From a virus (lineage: Duplodnaviria > Heunggongvirae > Uroviricota > Caudoviricetes): a DNA stretch of 42,963 nt. The first letter of the stretch is position 1, and each line of letters begins with the position of its first letter. Positions 10,287 to 42,963 of this stretch are shown here, one piece after another. The position numbers were made by a program, and so were the translations under genes. A model generated the notes under the pieces. It did not search any database. It saw nothing but the letters and a program-made list of their open reading frames with translations, and was not told the origin of the DNA. The DNA lies in IMG/VR virus record IMGVR_UViG_2698536570_000009, positions 1 through 42,963 of that record. One strand, written 5' to 3'.

Positions 10287-11141
10287 ATGGCAAACACTGC
10301 CGAAGTAATCAATTTCCCTGTGCCTGACGTGGCACCTAAGGAGCCGCGCGTGGCAGATCTTGATGATGGCTATACGCGCATCGCCAATGAACTTCTGGAG
10401 GCTGTCATGCTGGCTGGATTGTCTCAGCATCAGCTGCTGGTCTTCATGGCAGTAATGCGCAAAACATACGGTTTCAACAAAAAGGCAGACTGGGTAAGCA
10501 ATGATCAGTTATCTGCCCTGACCGGCATCCTCCCACACAAATGCTCTGCTGCTAAAAGCGCGTTAGTTAAGCGCGGGGTATTTACCCAAATCGGGCGAAC
10601 TGTGGGGATTAACAAAGCGGTCAGCGAATGGGTGAAATTACCCAAATCAGGTAACGAAAATAAAGTTTACCTGAAAGAGGTAAATTTACCCGTATCAGGT
10701 AAGAAATGTTTACCCGAATCAGGTAACGACACTTACCCAAATCAGGTAAACACAAAAGACAAACATACAAAAGACAATAAAGACAATATTAATAAACCCC
10801 CTAAATCCCCCAAACCGGCTTCGTTCGATCCGGCCGGTGTTGACCTTCCTGAATGGCTGTCAGTTTCAGTCTGGAAGTCATGGGTCGATTATCGTCGCGA
10901 CCTGAAGAAACCGATCAAGTCTCAGCAGACGGTTACCCAGGCCATCAACCTGCTCGAGCGTTGCAAGTGCAGCGGATATCAGCCTGAAGAAATCATCAAC
11001 CAGAGCATTGCGAACGGCTGGCAGGGATTGTTTGAACCGAAAGGCATCAAGCAGCCAGCCCGCAATCAGACTCGCGTATCCGAGAACTTCGCTGGCAAGG
11101 ACTATGGCCAGACTGAAATCCCGTCATGGGCGAGGGACTGA
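10287..11141 (+). CDS. replication initiator O-like protein (origin-binding); ori iterons lie inside the gene
   Basis: 284 aa; position after cII; internal direct repeats encode a repetitive 'LPKSG/LPVSG/LPESG' peptide segment; SD AGGAG. Confidence 0.8.
   Translation: MANTAEVINFPVPDVAPKEPRVADLDDGYTRIANELLEAVMLAGLSQHQLLVFMAVMRKTYGFNKKADWVSNDQLSALTGILPHKCSAAKSALVKRGVFTQIGRTVGINKAVSEWVKLPKSGNENKVYLKEVNLPVSGKKCLPESGNDTYPNQVNTKDKHTKDNKDNINKPPKSPKPASFDPAGVDLPEWLSVSVWKSWVDYRRDLKKPIKSQQTVTQAINLLERCKCSGYQPEEIINQSIANGWQGLFEPKGIKQPARNQTRVSENFAGKDYGQTEIPSWARD
10638..10800. repeat. phage replication origin: 4-5 iterons (consensus TTACCC-N5-AGGTAA, about 24-bp spacing) followed by an A-rich tract
   Basis: Iterons at about 10638-10654, 10669-10686 (degenerate), 10685-10702, 10709-10726, 10733-10749; A-rich 'CACAAAAGACAAACATACAAAAGACAATAAAGACAATATTAATAAA' at 10750-10800. 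Confidence 0.7.
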
Positions 11142-14591: not shown

Positions 14592-14641
14592 NNNNNNNNN
14601 NNNNNNNNNNNNNNNNNNNNNNNNNNNNNNNNNNNNNNNNN
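14592..14641. other. assembly gap (50 N)
   Basis: Run of exactly 50 'n' characters in the sequence. Confidence 0.97.
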
Positions 14642-20165: not shown

Positions 20166-20507
20166 ATGAAAATGCATAACGATCCCCACTCCTGGACGGA
20201 GTTTATCGAACTACTCCACAGTTGGTGGCGTGGCGAAACGCCGATGGGTGCCGTATTGCTATCGGTTGTCATGGCCGCCATGCGAATCGCTTACGGCGGT
20301 GGCGGCTGGAAGAAAATGCTCCTTGAGGGGGCAATCTGCGGAGCTCTAACCCTTACCGCTGTGTCAGCTCTTGATTACTTTAACCTTCCACAGTCTCTGT
20401 CGATAGCTATCGGCGGCGCGCTAGGGTTTGTTGGCGTAGAGCAGGTTAAGGTTATGGCTTCCCGGGTGTTTAATTCTCGCTTTGGAGGCGGTGATGCAAA
20501 TCAGTGA
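20166..20507 (+). CDS. lambda-family holin (S-like) with dual-start Met1-Lys2-Met3
   Basis: 113 aa with three hydrophobic segments and a charged C-terminus; pattern parallels recalled lambda S; SD GGAGG upstream; first gene of the lysis cassette. Confidence 0.8.
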   Translation: MKMHNDPHSWTEFIELLHSWWRGETPMGAVLLSVVMAAMRIAYGGGGWKKMLLEGAICGALTLTAVSALDYFNLPQSLSIAIGGALGFVGVEQVKVMASRVFNSRFGGGDANQ

Positions 20508-20934
20508 TAAAGGCATTGCCCTGATCAAGCAATTCGAAGGCTGCAAACTCACCGCGTACCAGGACAGCGTCGGTGTATGGACGATCGGCTATGGCTGGAC
20601 TCAGCCTGTCGACGGGAAACCAATCCACGCCGGAATGGTGATTAAGCAGGAGACGGCGGAGCGATTGCTGAAGACCGGACTGGTCAGCTATGAAAGTGAC
20701 GTATCCCGCCTGGTTAAAGTTGGTCTGACTCAGGGGCAATTCGACGCCCTGGTGTCGTTCACGTATAACCTCGGAGCCCGATCTTTATCGACATCGACTC
20801 TCCTGCGAAAACTCAACGCCGGTGATTACGCTGGCGCAGCCGATGAGTTCCTGCGCTGGAATAAAGCTGGCGGTAAAGTCCTGAACGGACTGACCCGTCG
20901 GCGTGAGGCGGAGCGCGCTCTGTTCCTGCCGTGA
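20494..20934 (+). CDS. endolysin, T4-lysozyme-like (GH24) muramidase
   Basis: Catalytic E-x8-D-x5-T spacing in '[21 protein letters not shown]'; '[12 protein letters not shown]' block; SD GGAGG; no N-terminal SAR segment. Confidence 0.9.
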
Positions 20935-21401
20935 TTAGCGCACTGGTTAAGCGTTACTGGCTACAGTTGCTGGTGCTGGCGTTAATCGGCGTGCTGGCGT
21001 TCTTCGTTAACCACTACCGCGACAACGCCATCACTTACAGAGACCAGCGCGATAAGGCCACTGAGAAACTCCTCCTGGCGACCGCCACCATTAAAGACAT
21101 GCAGACCCGCCAGCGTGATGTCGCTGCACTGGATGCCAAATACACCGGAGAACTGGCTGATGCGAAAGAAACCATTGAGCGTCTGCATAGCGATGTCATT
21201 GCTGGCCGTAAGCGGCTGCAGCTCAACGCAAACTGTCCCGCGAACGGAACGACCAGCACCGGCGGCCTGGGCGATGTTACCGGCCCCCGACTTACTGACT
21301 CCGCTGAACGGGATTATTTCACCCTCAGAGAGCGAATCGTCACAGTGACGAAACAGGTTGGATATTTGCAGGAATACATCAAAGAGCAGTGCTTAAATTG
21401 A
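20931..21401 (+). CDS. Rz-like i-spanin
   Basis: GTG start overlapping the lysozyme stop; N-terminal TM ('[16 protein letters not shown]') then coiled-coil periplasmic domain; contains the embedded Rz1 frame. Confidence 0.8.
21160..21348 (+). CDS. Rz1-like o-spanin (lipoprotein) embedded in the +1 frame of Rz
   Basis: Lipobox 'LLAVSGC' after a short signal sequence; Pro-rich mature region; wholly within Rz. Confidence 0.7.
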
Positions 21402-21433: not shown

Positions 21434-21838
21434 ATGCAAATAGATCAAGAATACCTTAAAGGTTTGCTCGAGGCTTTCGAGGCATCGGATTCACCTGATA
21501 CCGATATTATTCGATTAAATGATTTAGGGTTCAATTGTGAAACTGACACATTTGTGTTTCATATGCGTTTGCTTGAGGATAGAGGGCTGATTATCAGGAG
21601 TGATGGAGAGCCCGGCTTTGGTGCTATTCAGTCTTTAGACGGAATGACTCACTGGGCTGTAATGCCCTTGCGATTGACCGCGATGGGGCATGACTTCTTG
21701 GATGCTCTCCGTAACAAAGAGGTTTGGGCAACATTAAAAACCGGATTCAAAGATGCCAGTATGGGCACGCTGATGACAGTTTCGAAGGAGCTGTTTAACC
21801 GAGCTCTTGCTAAGCAACTTGATAAAATGTTCGACTAA
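21434..21838 (+). CDS. hypothetical moron protein after the lysis cassette (134 aa)
   Basis: AT-richer than neighbours; own terminator directly after the stop; no family recognised. Confidence 0.5.
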   Translation: MQIDQEYLKGLLEAFEASDSPDTDIIRLNDLGFNCETDTFVFHMRLLEDRGLIIRSDGEPGFGAIQSLDGMTHWAVMPLRLTAMGHDFLDALRNKEVWATLKTGFKDASMGTLMTVSKELFNRALAKQLDKMFD

Positions 21839-21859
21839 CCGCCTACGGGCGGTTTTTTA
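21839..21859 (+). terminator. rho-independent terminator
   Basis: CCGCC-TACG-GGCGG hairpin followed by TTTTTTATT immediately after the stop codon. Confidence 0.6.
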
Positions 21860-21914
21860 TTGTCAACTTTATGAGCAAACTGATCTTAATTACTGTAACT
21901 AGGTGGTCAATGAT

Positions 21915-22556
21915 ATGGCAACGCTTAAGGACCTTTCCAGTCAGTTAAGACAGCTGCAGAAGCAAATACCGTTTGCGACTGCCCAGGCTATGACTAAAGT
22001 GGTTCGCCAGATAGAAGCGGCCCAAAAAACAGCATTTGAGCGGAAGCTGGATAATCCAACACCTTTTACAGTTAAATCGGTAGGGTCAGTTGGTGCCAGG
22101 AAAAACAGCCTTCGTGCGAAGGTGTTTGTTCGTGATACTGCTGCTGGCTACCTTGAACCCTTCGAGTTCGGCGGAGCGCACAAGCTTAATGGTGGTGCTT
22201 TGCTTAACCCGAAAGACATAAAGCTTAATAAATACGGCAACCTGCCGCGTAATAAGCTCTCTCAGCTCAAAGCAAAGCCAAACGTATTTATTGGTGACGT
22301 TGGTGGCGTGAATGCCGTGTGGCAGAGAAAAAAGCCGAAAACCAAAAAAGGGAAGAAACGGGCAAAACGTTCTCCGAACGGCACGCGCAGAGACAAGATT
22401 AAGCAACCTGCACCAAAATTGCTTATTCGGTTTGGAGACGCGCTTCCAGTCAAACCAACGCTCGGCTATATGGACAGGGCAAACACCATGGCCAACGCAT
22501 TGTTACCCTCAGCGCTGCACCAGGCGATTGCTGAGGCGATCAGCTCGGCCAGATAG
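21915..22556 (+). CDS. hypothetical phage protein with Lys/Arg-rich segment (213 aa)
   Basis: ATG 21915 with SD AGGTGG (the ORF-track start 21903 is a GTG); basic stretch 'QRKKPKTKKGKKRAKRSPNGTRRDK'; sits just upstream of the terminase-site repeats. Confidence 0.5.
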   Translation: MATLKDLSSQLRQLQKQIPFATAQAMTKVVRQIEAAQKTAFERKLDNPTPFTVKSVGSVGARKNSLRAKVFVRDTAAGYLEPFEFGGAHKLNGGALLNPKDIKLNKYGNLPRNKLSQLKAKPNVFIGDVGGVNAVWQRKKPKTKKGKKRAKRSPNGTRRDKIKQPAPKLLIRFGDALPVKPTLGYMDRANTMANALLPSALHQAIAEAISSAR

Positions 22557-22644
22557 CCCCCCCAGGGATTTTGGGTCCTTCCTGAGCCTTTTGTAAGGCA
22601 CGGGCATTGCGCGCCGCGGTGTTTTCCTAGCTACAACTTTCAGA

Positions 22645-22796
22645 TTTGTGTCCCATGTCCCACCTCTGGCGATCATTACGGACACCTCGCCAGCTCTGGC
22701 TATTCCAGTTTATTCCAGTGGGACATTCTGGTGGGACATGGCAAAAATGTCCCAGGCGAATGTCCCACCCCAGAAAATGTCCCAGGTGATGTCCCA
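22645..22796. repeat. array of eight TGTCCCA / TGGGACA heptamer copies immediately upstream of terminase small subunit (candidate cosB-like binding sites)
   Basis: 'TGTCCCATGTCCCA', 'GTGGGACATTCTGGTGGGACATGG', 'ATGTCCCAGGCGAATGTCCCA', 'ATGTCCCAGGTGATGTCCCATG'; the last copy overlaps the small-subunit ATG. Confidence 0.5.
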
Positions 22797-23365
22797 TGAC
22801 CACGATGAACCAGAGTCAGTACGCACAACATTCAGGTGTGGATCGCAAAACAATTGGCCGGTGGATTAAAGCCGGGCGCTTCATTGTGATGGACGGAGAC
22901 CTGATTGACGTAGAGGCCAGCGATGCGGCATTGAAGAAAAACCGCGATGGCAAAGACCCGCGCGCCTCGAACGCGAAGAAAAAGAAAACTCCCGTCGTTA
23001 GCGATAACGATGATGACGGTGATGAAATCAATAAAACTGTCCGCCAGATAATGCTCACTGAAGGGGCAGATCTTTCGAGAGAGGAAGCGGGACGTATCCG
23101 CGAGAATTACATGGCCCTGCAGGCAAAGCTGCAGTATGAAAAAGACAGCGGCCAGCTTATTGAGCTGACAGCAGCCGAGGAGGTTTTATTCAACGCCTTT
23201 CGCCAACAGCGTGATGCCTGGCTTAACTGGCCGTCCAGGGTGGCGCCGCTAATGGCTGCTGATCTGGATGTACCGGCGGACAGGATGACAGAGGTGCTGA
23301 TTGAACATGTCCACAAACACATCTCAGTCCTCGGAGAGCCAGAGTTTAACCCGGCAGAAGATTGA
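22796..23365 (+). CDS. terminase small subunit (Nu1-like, N-terminal HTH)
   Basis: 189 aa; N-terminal 'NQSQYAQHSGVDRKTIGRWIKAG' HTH resembles recalled Nu1 'NKKQLADIFGASIRTIQNWQEQG'; directly precedes and overlaps the large subunit. Confidence 0.7.
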   Translation: MTTMNQSQYAQHSGVDRKTIGRWIKAGRFIVMDGDLIDVEASDAALKKNRDGKDPRASNAKKKKTPVVSDNDDDGDEINKTVRQIMLTEGADLSREEAGRIRENYMALQAKLQYEKDSGQLIELTAAEEVLFNAFRQQRDAWLNWPSRVAPLMAADLDVPADRMTEVLIEHVHKHISVLGEPEFNPAED

Positions 23366-25430
23366 GCGTCTTGAATTAAGCGTCCGCAAAGGCTGGACAC
23401 CCCCGCCGCGTATCAGTGTGCCGCAGTGGGCAGATGACTATCGTAAGCTGGCAAAAGAGGCTGGGAGCACTTCGGGAAACTGGGAAACATCGACGGTAGA
23501 AATTGCCCGCGGACCGATGCTTGCCGCGACGGAGTCCGGGGTTCATATCATCACTGTAATGTGCTGTACCCAGTTGATGAAGACAGCACTGCTGGAAAAC
23601 CTTTTTGGCTATTTTGCCCACCTCGATCCTTGTCCGATACTGCTGCTGCAGCCGAAAGAAGAAGCCGCTGAACAGTTTTCGAAAGAGCGTATTAGCCCGC
23701 TGGTAAGGGTGACGCCGGTACTGCGTAAAATCATCGGTGATTCGAAACAGAAAAGCTCGAAAGAAACCATTCTTTACAAGGCATTCACTGGCGGATTTCT
23801 GGCGCTGGCGGGTGCTGGTAGCCCTGATAACCTTGCGCGTCGTCCGATTCGTGTCCTGCTGGCGGATGAAGTGGACAAGTACCCGATAACCCGCGAAGGC
23901 GATCCAATTGCGCTGGCCGAAGAGCGTACAGCGACATTTGGCCTGACCTGGCTGTCTGTACGCGCCTGTTCGCCGACGGTGGAGGATGAGAGCCGCATTG
24001 CTGACAGCTACGCCGACTCCGATCAGCGCCGGGCATCTGTGGTTTGCCCGCACTGTGGCCACCGCCAGTTCCCCGACTTTTTCAAACACGTTCAGTGGCC
24101 GAAAGAGGGAGATAAACACCTGACTAAATCGGCGATGCTCTATTGCGAATGCTGTGGTAGTGGCTGGTCCGAAGGACAGCGCCTCAGAGCTCTGCACACT
24201 ATTCGATGGCATCAGACGCGCCCATTTGAGTGCTGCGGGGAGCGGCACTCACCGCTGATGGATTATGACCTTGCCTGGCGGGCGGCAGACGAGGGCAGCG
24301 TTGAAAAGGTCTGGCAATGGTCAGAGTCGGAACGGCATGCGGTCTATCGCGCAATCTGCCCCTCCTGTGGAAAGGAGGCAGTCGATAACCACCACGCGGG
24401 GTACCAGGCATCCAAGCTTTTCAGCCCCTGGCAAAAAGATAAGCCGTCGGATATTGCGAAAAAATATATCGATGCGAAGGGCGATCCGGATAAGGAACAG
24501 GCGTGGTGGAATACCCAGATGGGGCTTCCGCACCGACCTAATCATGGGAAACAGCTCCCTGTTGATGTTCTGCTGGCGCGCCGGGAAATATTTCCGGCCG
24601 TCGTTCCGGACGGGGTGGCATTGTTAACAGCTGGAGTTGATACCCAGGACGATCGCTTCGAAATTACGATCACCGGCTGGGGGAGAGATGAAGAATCGTG
24701 GTCGGTCGCGCATGACGTTATTTATGGTGACCTTGAGACGGAAGAACCCTGGAAGCGACTGGATGCATACCTGAAACAGATCTGGCGACGTGGTGACGGG
24801 CGCGGCCTGAATATCATGGCAACGTGCATGGACTCCGGTGGCCACCATACGCAGAAGGTATACGAATTCGCCAAAGAGCGTCTTGGCCGTCGTGTCTGGG
24901 CAATTAAGGGGGAGTCTGCACAGGGAGGTAAACGCAATCCTGTCTGGCCGACCAAACGACCATCATCGAAAAGCAAAGCCAGTTTCCGCCCTGTCATTCT
25001 GGGGGTTAACTCAGCGAAAGACGTGATACGCGGTCGCCTGCATCTTGAGCCACCCAAACCTGGCGCCGCCGCTGCGGGTTATATGCATTTTCCTGACGAT
25101 CGCGATCTCGGGTACTTCAATCAGCTGCTGGCGGAGCGACTGGTTTACAAAGTCATTTCCGGGCAGCGGTACAGTATCTGGGAAGCAATACCAGGACGAG
25201 CTAACGAAGCGCTTGACTGCCTCGTTTACAGCTATGCCGCGCTGTGCGGTCTCAAACATATGGGGTTAAAACTCAACGTCCGGGCCGCCAACCTCGAAGC
25301 CGATCCGGATAAGTTCCTGCCAGCGCCAGTTGGACAGGAAGAAAAAATCAATTACGAGCTGCCGGGTGCGGTTATTGAAGAACCAGCGCCGGTCAAACGT
25401 AAGCGAATATCGCAACTCCTGCCGAAATAA
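23301..25430 (+). CDS. terminase large subunit (lambda GpA family)
   Basis: 709 aa; GpA-like blocks ('VPQWADDY', 'LTAGVDTQDDRFEITITGWG', 'NEALDCLVYSYAA'); Cys-rich zinc-finger region. Confidence 0.9.
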   Translation: MNMSTNTSQSSESQSLTRQKIERLELSVRKGWTPPPRISVPQWADDYRKLAKEAGSTSGNWETSTVEIARGPMLAATESGVHIITVMCCTQLMKTALLENLFGYFAHLDPCPILLLQPKEEAAEQFSKERISPLVRVTPVLRKIIGDSKQKSSKETILYKAFTGGFLALAGAGSPDNLARRPIRVLLADEVDKYPITREGDPIALAEERTATFGLTWLSVRACSPTVEDESRIADSYADSDQRRASVVCPHCGHRQFPDFFKHVQWPKEGDKHLTKSAMLYCECCGSGWSEGQRLRALHTIRWHQTRPFECCGERHSPLMDYDLAWRAADEGSVEKVWQWSESERHAVYRAICPSCGKEAVDNHHAGYQASKLFSPWQKDKPSDIAKKYIDAKGDPDKEQAWWNTQMGLPHRPNHGKQLPVDVLLARREIFPAVVPDGVALLTAGVDTQDDRFEITITGWGRDEESWSVAHDVIYGDLETEEPWKRLDAYLKQIWRRGDGRGLNIMATCMDSGGHHTQKVYEFAKERLGRRVWAIKGESAQGGKRNPVWPTKRPSSKSKASFRPVILGVNSAKDVIRGRLHLEPPKPGAAAAGYMHFPDDRDLGYFNQLLAERLVYKVISGQRYSIWEAIPGRANEALDCLVYSYAALCGLKHMGLKLNVRAANLEADPDKFLPAPVGQEEKINYELPGAVIEEPAPVKRKRISQLLPK

Positions 25431-41421: not shown

Positions 41422-42522
41422 ATGCTCCGAATCGGGCAAGTCGAAGCCACTGCAACGCAGGATGGCAAATATACTGATGGAAGTGTTGCTGGTGGTATTG
41501 CCGCAACGAGGCTGCGGGCAGCAGCGTTTAATGCCATGCAGGAAGAGTTAGCGCATATCGTAGAGTCAGCAGGATTGGCGCTCGACATTAACGATATGAC
41601 TCAGGTTTTAAAAGCCATTCAAAAACTCACACTGAGCCGTGCAAACCCATTTGCCGATATCAAATCAGATGGTGCAGCGGCGATTTCTACGGCTCTCACA
41701 AACCTTGGTCTTATAGAAGCGCTAAAAAACAAACAACCCCTCAGCGATACGCTGACAAAACTTTCCACGCTGGGGCCGCAAACTAACGCTGATCAGGTTC
41801 TGTTTTTTTCTGGTAAAAATGTTCCGGCAGTATCAGCGCTGACGCTCGCTGGCCGTCAATTTATCAGTAAAGAAAATGTTCCTGATATGCTTCAGTATCT
41901 GACACTGGGGGACGGCTCAGGACGTTTACTTGGAGTGCAGGTATTCGGTACTTCGGGGATGTACTACAAATCGCCGGGCGTAAAAAAAATTATTGTGGAA
42001 GCCGTTGGCGGTGGTGGTGCCAGTGGCAATTTATCAGCAACAGCCCAAAATAACTGTGGCGTCAGCCCAGCTGGTTCTCCTGGAGCCTACGGGAAGGCTT
42101 TTTATTACCAGAATATACCGGAGTCTGTACCTGTAACGATTGGCTCCGGTGGTGTTGGTGGTGCGGGGTCAGGTGGTTCAGGTGGTGATGGCGGTCAGAC
42201 AAGTTTTGGTTCATTACTAGTTTGTCCTGGCGGAAAAGGCTCACAACAACGTCAGCAGGTTCCTCCGTTCTCGGGTGGAAGTGCCACCGAAGCCTCACCA
42301 CCAACAGGGTCCGGAATTCTGTTTCACTCTGTTTCACGATCAAATTTATGTGGGACACTTGGACTTGGTGATGATCAGGCGATTGGCATTGAAAGCACCA
42401 TAACAACGAATCTCGGGATATATGGGACAGGTGGGACAGGGAAATACAATCCAGCAAACAGTGGACCGTCAAGAGGCAATGACGGTTCTCAGGGTTATAT
42501 TATTGTGTGGGAGTATCAGTGA
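41422..42522 (+). CDS. tail fiber protein with Gly-rich C-terminal domain
   Basis: Conserved fiber N-terminus 'MLRIGQVEATATQDGKYTDGSVAGG'; C-terminal glycine-rich repeats 'GGGGASG...SGGVGGAGSGGSGGDGG'. Confidence 0.75.
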   Translation: MLRIGQVEATATQDGKYTDGSVAGGIAATRLRAAAFNAMQEELAHIVESAGLALDINDMTQVLKAIQKLTLSRANPFADIKSDGAAAISTALTNLGLIEALKNKQPLSDTLTKLSTLGPQTNADQVLFFSGKNVPAVSALTLAGRQFISKENVPDMLQYLTLGDGSGRLLGVQVFGTSGMYYKSPGVKKIIVEAVGGGGASGNLSATAQNNCGVSPAGSPGAYGKAFYYQNIPESVPVTIGSGGVGGAGSGGSGGDGGQTSFGSLLVCPGGKGSQQRQQVPPFSGGSATEASPPTGSGILFHSVSRSNLCGTLGLGDDQAIGIESTITTNLGIYGTGGTGKYNPANSGPSRGNDGSQGYIIVWEYQ

Positions 42523-42775: not shown

Positions 42776-42924
42776 AATTTCTGCATAAAAAACAAATAAA
42801 TATGTAATAACTTAACGTTTCTATAACTATAGTTAGTAATAAAATAATGATGACTTTTTGATGCGTTTAGAGATAAGATAATTACACATTTTTCTTCGAG
42901 TTTCTGAGGAGTTAAGTTGAAATG

Positions 42925-42963
42925 AAGCCCTGCAAAGCCCTGCAAAGCCCTGCAAAGCCCTGC
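42925..42963 (+). repeat. tandem decamer repeat (AAGCCCTGCA, about 3.9 copies) immediately after a start codon; truncated by window end
   Basis: ATG at 42922 preceded by SD GAGGAG (about 10-nt spacing); repeats continue to the last base of the window. Confidence 0.8.

Follow-up and report, generated by a model that had tools for sequence, protein, structure and literature searches.

An eight-copy heptamer array ahead of terS is the probable cosB subsite of a lambda-type cos site in a family of enterobacterial prophages

In the DNA of a tailed virus (Duplodnaviria; Heunggongvirae; Uroviricota; Caudoviricetes), IMG/VR virus record IMGVR_UViG_2698536570_000009, direct and inverted copies of one heptamer, TGTCCCA, are crowded into a short non-coding stretch that ends at the start codon of the gene for the small terminase subunit (terS, product TerS). 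The locus raises a simple question: is the array recognized by TerS when DNA packaging begins, or does it have another role or none? We analyzed positions 1 to 42,963 of the record (the whole 42,963-bp stretch is called the window below) and concluded, with a probability of about 85%, that the array is the predicted TerS recognition site, i.e., the cosB subsite (22649-22796) of a lambda-type cos site whose other parts, cosQ (22573-22579) and cosN (~22598-22621), lie immediately to its left.

An exact-match search located TGTCCCA on the + strand at 22649, 22656, 22748, 22761, 22778, and 22790, and TGGGACA (TGTCCCA on the - strand) at 22719 and 22732, which gives eight exact heptamers within 148 bp (22649-22796). 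The initial annotation of this DNA, made from the sequence, had described an array of direct and inverted heptamers at 22645-22796 whose last copy overlaps the small-subunit start codon. Its coordinates proved correct within 4 bp, and the overlap amounts to one base, the final A of the last heptamer (22790-22796) being the A of the terS ATG (22796). No one-mismatch copy of TGTCCCA was found inside the array, all eight being exact, and the preceding base is A in seven of the eight copies, which extends the unit to ATGTCCCA. The whole window holds 14 copies of TGTCCCA/TGGGACA against 5.0 ± 2.2 expected, a number reached in 0 of 100 shuffles. For any 7-mer and any 150-bp stretch of the window, the array has the highest density; the maximum in 30 shuffled windows was 3-4. 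One-mismatch variants of TGTCCCA are rarer in the whole window than in shuffled sequence (84 vs 114 ± 10, all 100 shuffles having at least 84), which may mean that stray TerS sites are avoided or may simply follow from base composition. Three further TGGGACA copies are found at 42351-42438, in a coding stretch (...YGTGGTGKYNPANSGPSRGNDGSQGYIIVWEYQ and a stop) resembling a tail-fibre C-terminus; we rejected them as a packaging signal, as they are a Gly-Thr codon coincidence within the tail-fibre-like open reading frame (ORF).

The initial annotation had also expected cosN just upstream of the array. A 12-nt sequence at that place, GCATTGCGCGCC, is identical to the virion-determined cohesive end of Serratia phage vB_SspM_BZS1 (hereafter BZS1), and an exact lambda cosQ is found 24 nt further upstream (23 nt in lambda). 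The linear GenBank record of BZS1 carries the annotation "cosL" at bases 1-12; at the right end it has ...GGGTCCTTCC...GTAAAGCACGG, and at the left end GCATTGCGCGCC followed by GCG. The 5′ overhang of BZS1 was determined in two ways (PMC7556043): PhageTerm was run on reads from virions, and sequences of the phage ends were set against a PCR product spanning the prophage junction. From the identity to this cohesive end, the nick positions in the window prophage can be predicted to within 1 nt. An earlier candidate for the cohesive end in the lambda register, GGCATTGCGCGC (22603-22614), was replaced by the BZS1-determined one (22604-22615). The predicted cohesive end is followed after about 33-34 bp by the first heptamer. 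The cosN 15-mer GGGCATTGCGCGCCG is held by 120 viral contigs, 60 of which have GGGTCCT 28-29 nt upstream; only these 60 were used, as about 100 chance matches are possible in such a scan, and the other 60 are consistent with chance matches or diverged sites.

Relatives of the array also bear on its function. A species scan with one genome per species yielded 42 loci, with TerS identity to the window from 100% down to 27%. Where TerS is at least 65% identical (Kluyvera, Citrobacter, Raoultella, Salmonella, Ewingella, Rahnella, and Hafnia), the loci hold seven or eight TGTCCCA copies and the intervening bases drift. Among 40 unique cos regions of this class (class 1), heptamer columns are 89% conserved as compared to 61% for inter-heptamer columns (Mann-Whitney p = 5e-16, a value that is indicative only since the sequences are related); cosQ, the cosN block, and the cosN-to-cosB segment are conserved at 100, 94, and 78%, respectively. 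Loci with a TerS of 54-60% identity (Raoultella scottii, Edwardsiella, Providencia, and Xenorhabdus) have zero TGTCCCA; six to eight GGTAACA copies stand there in the same layout. The N-terminus of TerS reads ...DFARLHGVSRKTVTMWKSRGWL... in these GGTAACA loci vs ...QYAQHSGVDRKTIGRWIKAGRF... in the TGTCCCA loci, and the C-terminal half is nearly identical in both.

Heptamer and TerS sequence were then compared in 89 non-redundant upstream regions, counting loci with at least two heptamer copies. The TerS helix-turn-helix (HTH) motif GV[DN]RKT is accompanied by TGTCCCA in 40/40 loci (class 1) and the motif VSRKT.T by GGTAACA in 32/32 (class 2). The three smaller classes pair GC[SD]..VRRA with TGTTCGC (10/12), GVSHTAV with GGTTTCA (2/2), and GVSRQAV with CTTGACA (2/3). 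Cross-combinations of HTH class and heptamer were zero among the 89 regions and five classes, also at loci with diverged flanking DNA, and the copy number of the heptamer varies from 2 to 9 across regions. Class-2 loci and many beta-proteobacterial relatives also have the exact cosQ sequence. Taken together, the sequence comparisons support an array that is under selection and covaries with the HTH of TerS.

The same pairing is evident within one host species. Two E. coli prophages (L168 and L169) have upstream genes, cosQ, cosN, TerS C-terminus, and large terminase subunit (TerL) like those of the window, but they carry seven GGTAACA copies and a class-2 N-domain. Sliding identity between the window and L168 is 95-100% up to ~22640, falls to 25-55% from ~22645 to ~23140, and returns to 85-97% after that. 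The drop marks out the exchanged module: the array together with about 115 codons from the start of TerS. The two genes ahead of the cos site, encoding a DUF2513 protein and a PHROG 1924 protein, are at least 95% identical between class-1 and class-2 E. coli prophages and show no covariation with the heptamer.

Counted from the left end (22604 = +1), the sites of the window are +46>, +53>, +116<, +129<, +145>, +158>, +175>, and +187>, with the terS ATG at +193. The repeated sites thus lie in the interval from cosN to terS, and one set of them is inverted (Table 1). Two abutting heptamers at +46 to +48 and +53 to +55 are common to all members of all classes, with the simple arrays and the beta-proteobacterial loci among them; this tandem pair is the invariant core of the array. 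Simple arrays (BZS1, Citrobacter phage phiNP, and many viral contigs) consist of +48>, +55>, and +67> only, and the ATG follows at +75; it is at about +193 to +215 in the complex arrays. In simple class-2 cos sites (L166, which is BZS1, and L081), one inverted GGTAACA is found at +218, ~150 bp into terS; by analogy it may be reminiscent of the N15 accessory rR2 site, or it may be there by chance.

Complex arrays of class 1 and class 2 have the inverted pair with its copies 12-14 bp apart, and direct copies are mostly 12-13 bp apart across relatives. The first two direct copies and the inverted pair of the window form a two-fold symmetric unit (22718-22768) with 22-nt arms that are 86% complementary. 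The order AGGTGA, heptamer, and ATG at the end of the array is also found in class-2 loci. The spacer between the tandem and inverted pairs contains an inverted repeat, CTGGCGA-N14-TCGCCAG (22666-22693), and two copies of TATTCCAGT (22701-22719). It is exchanged wholesale among relatives, and the distance from tandem pair to inverted pair is 63-84 bp start to start. The spacers of Ewingella, Rahnella, and Hafnia (L009, L011, and L012) have the palindrome GTGCATAnnTATGCAC; those of Providencia and Xenorhabdus (L015-L017) are very AT-rich A-tract DNA. Such differences between relatives could be different bending solutions.

Table 1. Features of the predicted cos site and adjacent genes in the 42,963-bp window.
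Feature	Position	Strand	Remarks
Lysis genes (holin, endolysin, Rz-like)	20166-21401		
DUF2513 protein (134 aa), then PHROG 1924 "minor tail protein" (217 aa)	21434-22556		
Non-coding gap, 239 bp	22557-22795		ahead of terS
cosQ, GGGTCCT	22573-22579	+	identical to lambda cosQ (lambda 48473-48479)
Conserved cosN block	about 22598-22621	+	
Predicted 12-nt 5′ cohesive end (cosN core), GCATTGCGCGCC	22604-22615	+	identical to BZS1 cosL
cosN-to-cosB segment, CGCGGTGTTTTCCTAGCTACAACTTTCAGATTTG	22616-22648	+	position of lambda I2; resembles lambda CGCGGGTTTTCGCTA...
Tandem heptamer pair, TGTCCCATGTCCCA	22649-22662 (+46 to +59)	+	positional equivalent of lambda R3
Variable 56-bp spacer	22663-22718		position of lambda I1; poorly conserved
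Inverted heptamer pair, TGGGACA, 13 bp apart	22719-22725, 22732-22738	-	equivalent of lambda R2
Four direct heptamers, spacing 13, 17, and 12 bp	22748-22796	+	equivalent of lambda R1, multiplied
Shine-Dalgarno-like AGGTGA	22784-22789	+	6 nt before ATG 22796; last heptamer in between
terS, small terminase subunit, 189 aa	22796-23365	+	PHROG 57 "terminase small subunit", E = 4.6e-36
terL, gpA-family large terminase	23301-25430	+	Pfam GpA_ATPase, E = 2.8e-64; GpA_nuclease, E = 2.2e-78

Several results weigh against a cosB function of the array. Since the array and the TerS N-domain are adjacent, linkage could produce part of the covariation. This objection is eased because the GGTAACA/VSRKT pairing recurs in three independent contexts: in complex arrays of Enterobacterales; in the 3-copy arrays of BZS1 and Citrobacter phage phiNP, where the TerS C-domain is unrelated; and in Paraburkholderia, Pandoraea, and Burkholderia prophages, where cosN has diverged and an exact tttgGGTAACAGGTAACA stands at the same place. 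A generic local alignment of the window cos with the lambda cos was not significant (score 27 vs 21 ± 3 for shuffled sequence, maximum 32), so the cos was placed by motif position and by the BZS1 ends. By manual count the cohesive end agrees with the lambda-type GGGCGGCGACCT at 5/12 positions. The lambda-like block CGCGG..TTTTC.CTA is present after the GC-rich stretch. The window cos represents a separate cos group that shares cosQ with lambda. The consensus for integration host factor (IHF), WATCAANNNNTTR, is absent from +1 to +197 at up to one mismatch, in a scan that recovers lambda I1 at +79; a lambda-style IHF hairpin is therefore not supported. The I1 site is not universal in cosBs, because N15-type cosBs are also without it. 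On the protein side, hhalign aligned TerS 4-35 with lambda Nu1 3-34, the winged HTH (probability 73%, E = 3.2e-5), over 32 residues only. TerS has no Pfam match at E ≤ 0.01, and Phage_Nu1 (PF07471) is absent even at E ≤ 10. In a single-sequence AlphaFold prediction, the N-domain has the topology of a winged HTH (helices 6-13 and 17-25, beta-hairpin 29-38), and long helices come after a disordered linker; the mean pLDDT (predicted local distance difference test) is 62, with values of 70-78 over residues 1-40. Foldseek found no match to this model at E < 0.1.

In the alignment, TerS falls into three parts: its N-domain of ~45 aa is specific to the class, the linker after it varies, and the C-terminal half is conserved. 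Residues 1-45 are a predicted winged HTH and residues 44-72 a linker predicted to be disordered; the C-terminal half, also predicted to be helical, would serve in oligomerization and TerL binding. In lambda Nu1, residues Q20 and E24 decide the discrimination between lambda and phage 21 (PMC4669245). In the hhalign register these residues fall on G21 and K25 of TerS; class 2 has T and S/A/E at the two positions. Sub-threshold profile matches of the N-domain are to NCBIfam HTH_BldC (E = 0.01), to Pfam HTH_17 (E = 0.03), to models of MerR type, and to the PHROG 66 excisionase (E = 8e-5). The best local Foldseek matches, which are non-significant, were BldC (probability 0.96), the Xis of mycobacteriophage Pukovnik (0.89), and the RppC/TerS complex; RppC was also the best match in a PDB profile search (E = 0.17, not significant). 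BldC and Xis bind direct repeats as head-to-tail multimers. The two proteins are the best sub-threshold matches to the N-domain, and direct copies here are 12-13 bp apart, a likeness that we take as a lead only. Based on the alignments and the model, TerS probably works like Nu1, with a DNA-binding winged HTH and a TerL-binding tail, and stands outside the Pfam Nu1 family.

The array also occurs away from any terminase gene. E. coli EC12 carries an island at tRNA-Ile/mug (NZ_CP070229, ~3672883-3688173; L171 1-15300 and L170 ~1518-1790) with genes for Icd-like, DUF4222, primase, SSB, ProQ/FinO, PerC, and KilA-N proteins and no capsid or terminase genes. The island ends in cosQ, a cosN variant (GCATTGCGCGAG), and seven TGTCCCA copies, and no TerS- or Rpp-like ORF was found after the array. 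A full-length match to the island was present in 2/5,426 E. coli genomes. Retention of the array where there is no terS to regulate is as expected for a cis-acting packaging signal. Gram-negative PICIs (chromosomal islands that are phage-inducible) of the EcCICFT073 type reuse the cosQ and cosN of their helper, are without R repeats, and need Rpp to retarget TerS (PMC9026076). The EC12 island resembles them in carrying the cosQ and cosN of this phage family and differs from them by its full helper-type TGTCCCA array with no rpp-like ORF behind it. From its sequence, the EC12 island may be a satellite that borrows the class-1 packaging specificity directly.

Could the heptamers be operators of a phage or host transcription factor other than TerS, controlling terS or the late/packaging operon, with the proximity to cos incidental? 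The array lies in the terS 5′ leader, with its last copy between AGGTGA and ATG; short repeats in direct and inverted orientation are a usual feature of operators, and a DUF2513 gene of unknown function is nearby. However, we found no sigma-70-like promoter or terminator in 22300-23000, changes of the heptamer go with the TerS HTH rather than with the upstream genes, the array is retained on the EC12 island without terS, and the tandem pair keeps its distance to cosN rather than to the ATG. We consider an operator improbable, and a role of the facing TGGGACA and TGTCCCA copies in nucleic-acid structure, as a hairpin of the late mRNA leader or as a cruciform or single-stranded DNA hairpin, is even less probable. 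The inverted repeat (22718-22739 with 22747-22768, 86% complementary) could form such a structure, and RNA folding of 22640-22800 gave z = -2.4, with 4/200 shuffles folding equally well. This modest z-score is fully accounted for by oppositely oriented protein sites, and "compensatory" changes between classes are automatic for inverted copies of one binding site. Direct copies only, which cannot pair, make up the tandem-pair core and every simple array (those of BZS1, of phiNP, and of the beta-proteobacterial loci), and no Rfam family was found, the sole Rfam match being a spurious miRNA (E = 0.16).

The initial annotation had called the array a strong candidate for a small-subunit recognition array that is cosB- or pac-like. 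In pac phages, too, the small terminase recognizes short repeated sites, which lie close to terS or within it. A pac site, as used in headful packaging, is nevertheless very unlikely here: TerL, gpW, and portal are of the lambda family, cosQ and cosN are identical to lambda cosQ and to a determined 12-nt end, and the relative BZS1 has 5′ cohesive ends. The cosB-like part of that description is supported by the covariation with the HTH, by the higher conservation of the heptamers, and by the terminase-less island; the pac-like part is not, as the system is a cos system. Least credible of all is an origin of the repeats without function, through slippage during replication or through duplication on a local scale within a non-coding gap. 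Longer units such as AAAATGTCCCAGG(C/T)GA and the variation in copy number do indicate that duplication and deletion occur here, but the heptamers stay exact from genus to genus as the spacers diverge, and in other classes another heptamer takes the same layout in perfect association with the HTH class. We therefore retained cosB as the preferred reading of the array.

How does this cosB compare with known cos systems? In lambda, R3 occupies bp 50-65, TerS contacts bp 55-63, and the R3-cosN distance is critical (PMC9026076). The window shares with lambda a three-part cos ahead of terS, an identical cosQ, a GC-rich 12-nt end followed by the CGCGG block, a gpA-family TerL, gpW, and a lambda-type portal, and a TerS with a predicted winged HTH at the N-terminus and a putative TerL-binding half at the C-terminus. 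The terS ATG is at +193 vs +191 in lambda, the first site pair is at +46 to +59 vs 50-65 for R3, and the site orientation (> > ... < < > > > >) parallels R3 > R2 < R1 > of lambda. Unlike lambda, however, the unit is an exact 7-mer rather than an R sequence of ~16 bp, and there are eight copies vs three, each lambda R being represented by a pair or a quartet and R3 by two abutting heptamers in tandem; the four sites in the center make up a unit with two-fold symmetry.

Lambda and phage 21 share the same cosQ and cosN and differ in R sites and in the Nu1 recognition helix, as described by Feiss and colleagues (PMC4669245). E. coli prophages of one backbone repeat this pattern, sharing cosQ, cosN, TerS C-terminus, and TerL and differing in heptamer and N-domain, and the N-domain differences between classes fall at positions aligned with lambda 20 and 24. 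The present family has at least five natural classes vs two or three in the lambda/21 case. The simple cosB of N15 and the complex cosB of Monarch represent one specificity in two architectures (PMC4669245), and the GGTAACA class is likewise found both as a 3-copy simple array and as a 6- to 8-copy complex array with an inverted pair; the simple form here is a tandem pair plus one more copy, as opposed to a single R3. BZS1 and Citrobacter phage phiNP have the same cosQ, cohesive end, and tandem-pair position as the window, and a TerS of the same family by tblastn (33% identity). They differ by a class-2 heptamer and HTH and by only three copies, and the BZS1 TerS C-domain is unrelated. A term search of the BZS1 paper (PMC7556043) found the ends reported and no mention of a cosB array. 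In full-text searches of the phage literature, whose coverage is incomplete, the cohesive-end sequence was found in the BZS1 paper only (plus an unrelated RNA-interaction software paper), and tandem heptamer pairs were found in none. The site thus appears, from its sequence features, to be a lambda-type cosQ-cosN-cosB site whose R-site specificity is new and whose architecture is built on multiple heptamers.

Lambdoid phages keep their cos in a gene order like the one around the array. Downstream of the site are a gpA-family TerL whose full-length identity to lambda gpA is 29%, then gpW (Pfam, 1.3e-14) and a lambda-family portal (Phage_portal_2, 6.6e-100). The PHROG 1924 "minor tail protein" gene lies between the lysis cassette and cos, an unusual place for a tail gene; its product had no match in NCBIfam. 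A prophage of E. coli AW1.7 is 100% identical to the window, and the region is carried by ~60/5,426 complete E. coli genomes (~1%). Because the region had no megablast match among sequenced phages and tblastn with TerS gave matches at 33% identity or less only, the phage has no characterized close relative. One enterobacterial-type prophage cos, with a TerS 89% identical, comes from an assembly with a Gram-positive label, "Vagococcus sp. WN89Y" (L006, NZ_JBQPOM010000071.1), which is probably contaminated or mislabelled.

Elsewhere in the window, five iterons of ~TTTACCCAAATCAGGTAA (TTACC-N6-GGTAA) followed by an AT-rich stretch are found at 10620-10800, inside the ORF 10287-11141. The lambda origin likewise has iterons and an AT-rich stretch inside gene O, and by this analogy the iterons are probably the replication origin of the prophage. 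In the early region, 50 consecutive N at 14592-14641 are masked sequence or an assembly gap, and a tandem repeat of four AAGCCCTGC units at 42924-42963 runs off the window end.

How the site would work can be proposed from its parts. During late growth, the winged HTH domains at the N-terminus of TerS would bind the TGTCCCA heptamers, and the tandem pair would anchor TerL over cosN to its left. Staggered nicks made there by TerL would leave the 12-nt 5′ end, and TerL would translocate the DNA. We infer that the inverted pair and the helical-turn-spaced direct copies would take further TerS domains across a bend or loop in the 56-bp spacer. The resulting stable, sequence-specific initiation complex would stay on the left end and dock on the portal, and cosQ of the downstream cos would terminate packaging. 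Packaging specificity would be set by the heptamer and the TerS recognition helix, and prophages with the same cosQ, cosN, and TerL and another heptamer and N-domain would not package each other's DNA.

A more detailed scheme, which we put forward tentatively and as one that is doubtful in its entirety, would combine several of the above observations. Xis- or BldC-like N-domains of TerS would polymerize head-to-tail on the abutting or helical-turn-spaced 7-mers and across the symmetric four-site unit, free of IHF, unlike the IHF-bent Nu1 dimer of lambda. The copy number (2-9) might tune packaging efficiency or competition, terminase-less satellites might parasitize the system via the array alone and without an Rpp-type protein, and the five or more HTH-heptamer pairs might make up a readable recognition code.

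The predicted site locates cos and predicts the cohesive end of widespread enterobacterial prophages (E. coli, Kluyvera, Citrobacter, Raoultella, Salmonella, Hafnia, and others), which is useful when such prophages are annotated, when their genomes are oriented, and when cosmid-like or transduction tools are designed. In the cos-only island there is a hint of a satellite strategy unlike that of the Rpp-dependent PICIs. Current understanding is not overturned by these results; they extend a well-established mechanism to a new sequence family, in which at least five natural TerS-HTH/heptamer pairs on conserved machinery would allow packaging specificity to be tested more broadly and more cleanly than lambda, 21, and N15 do.

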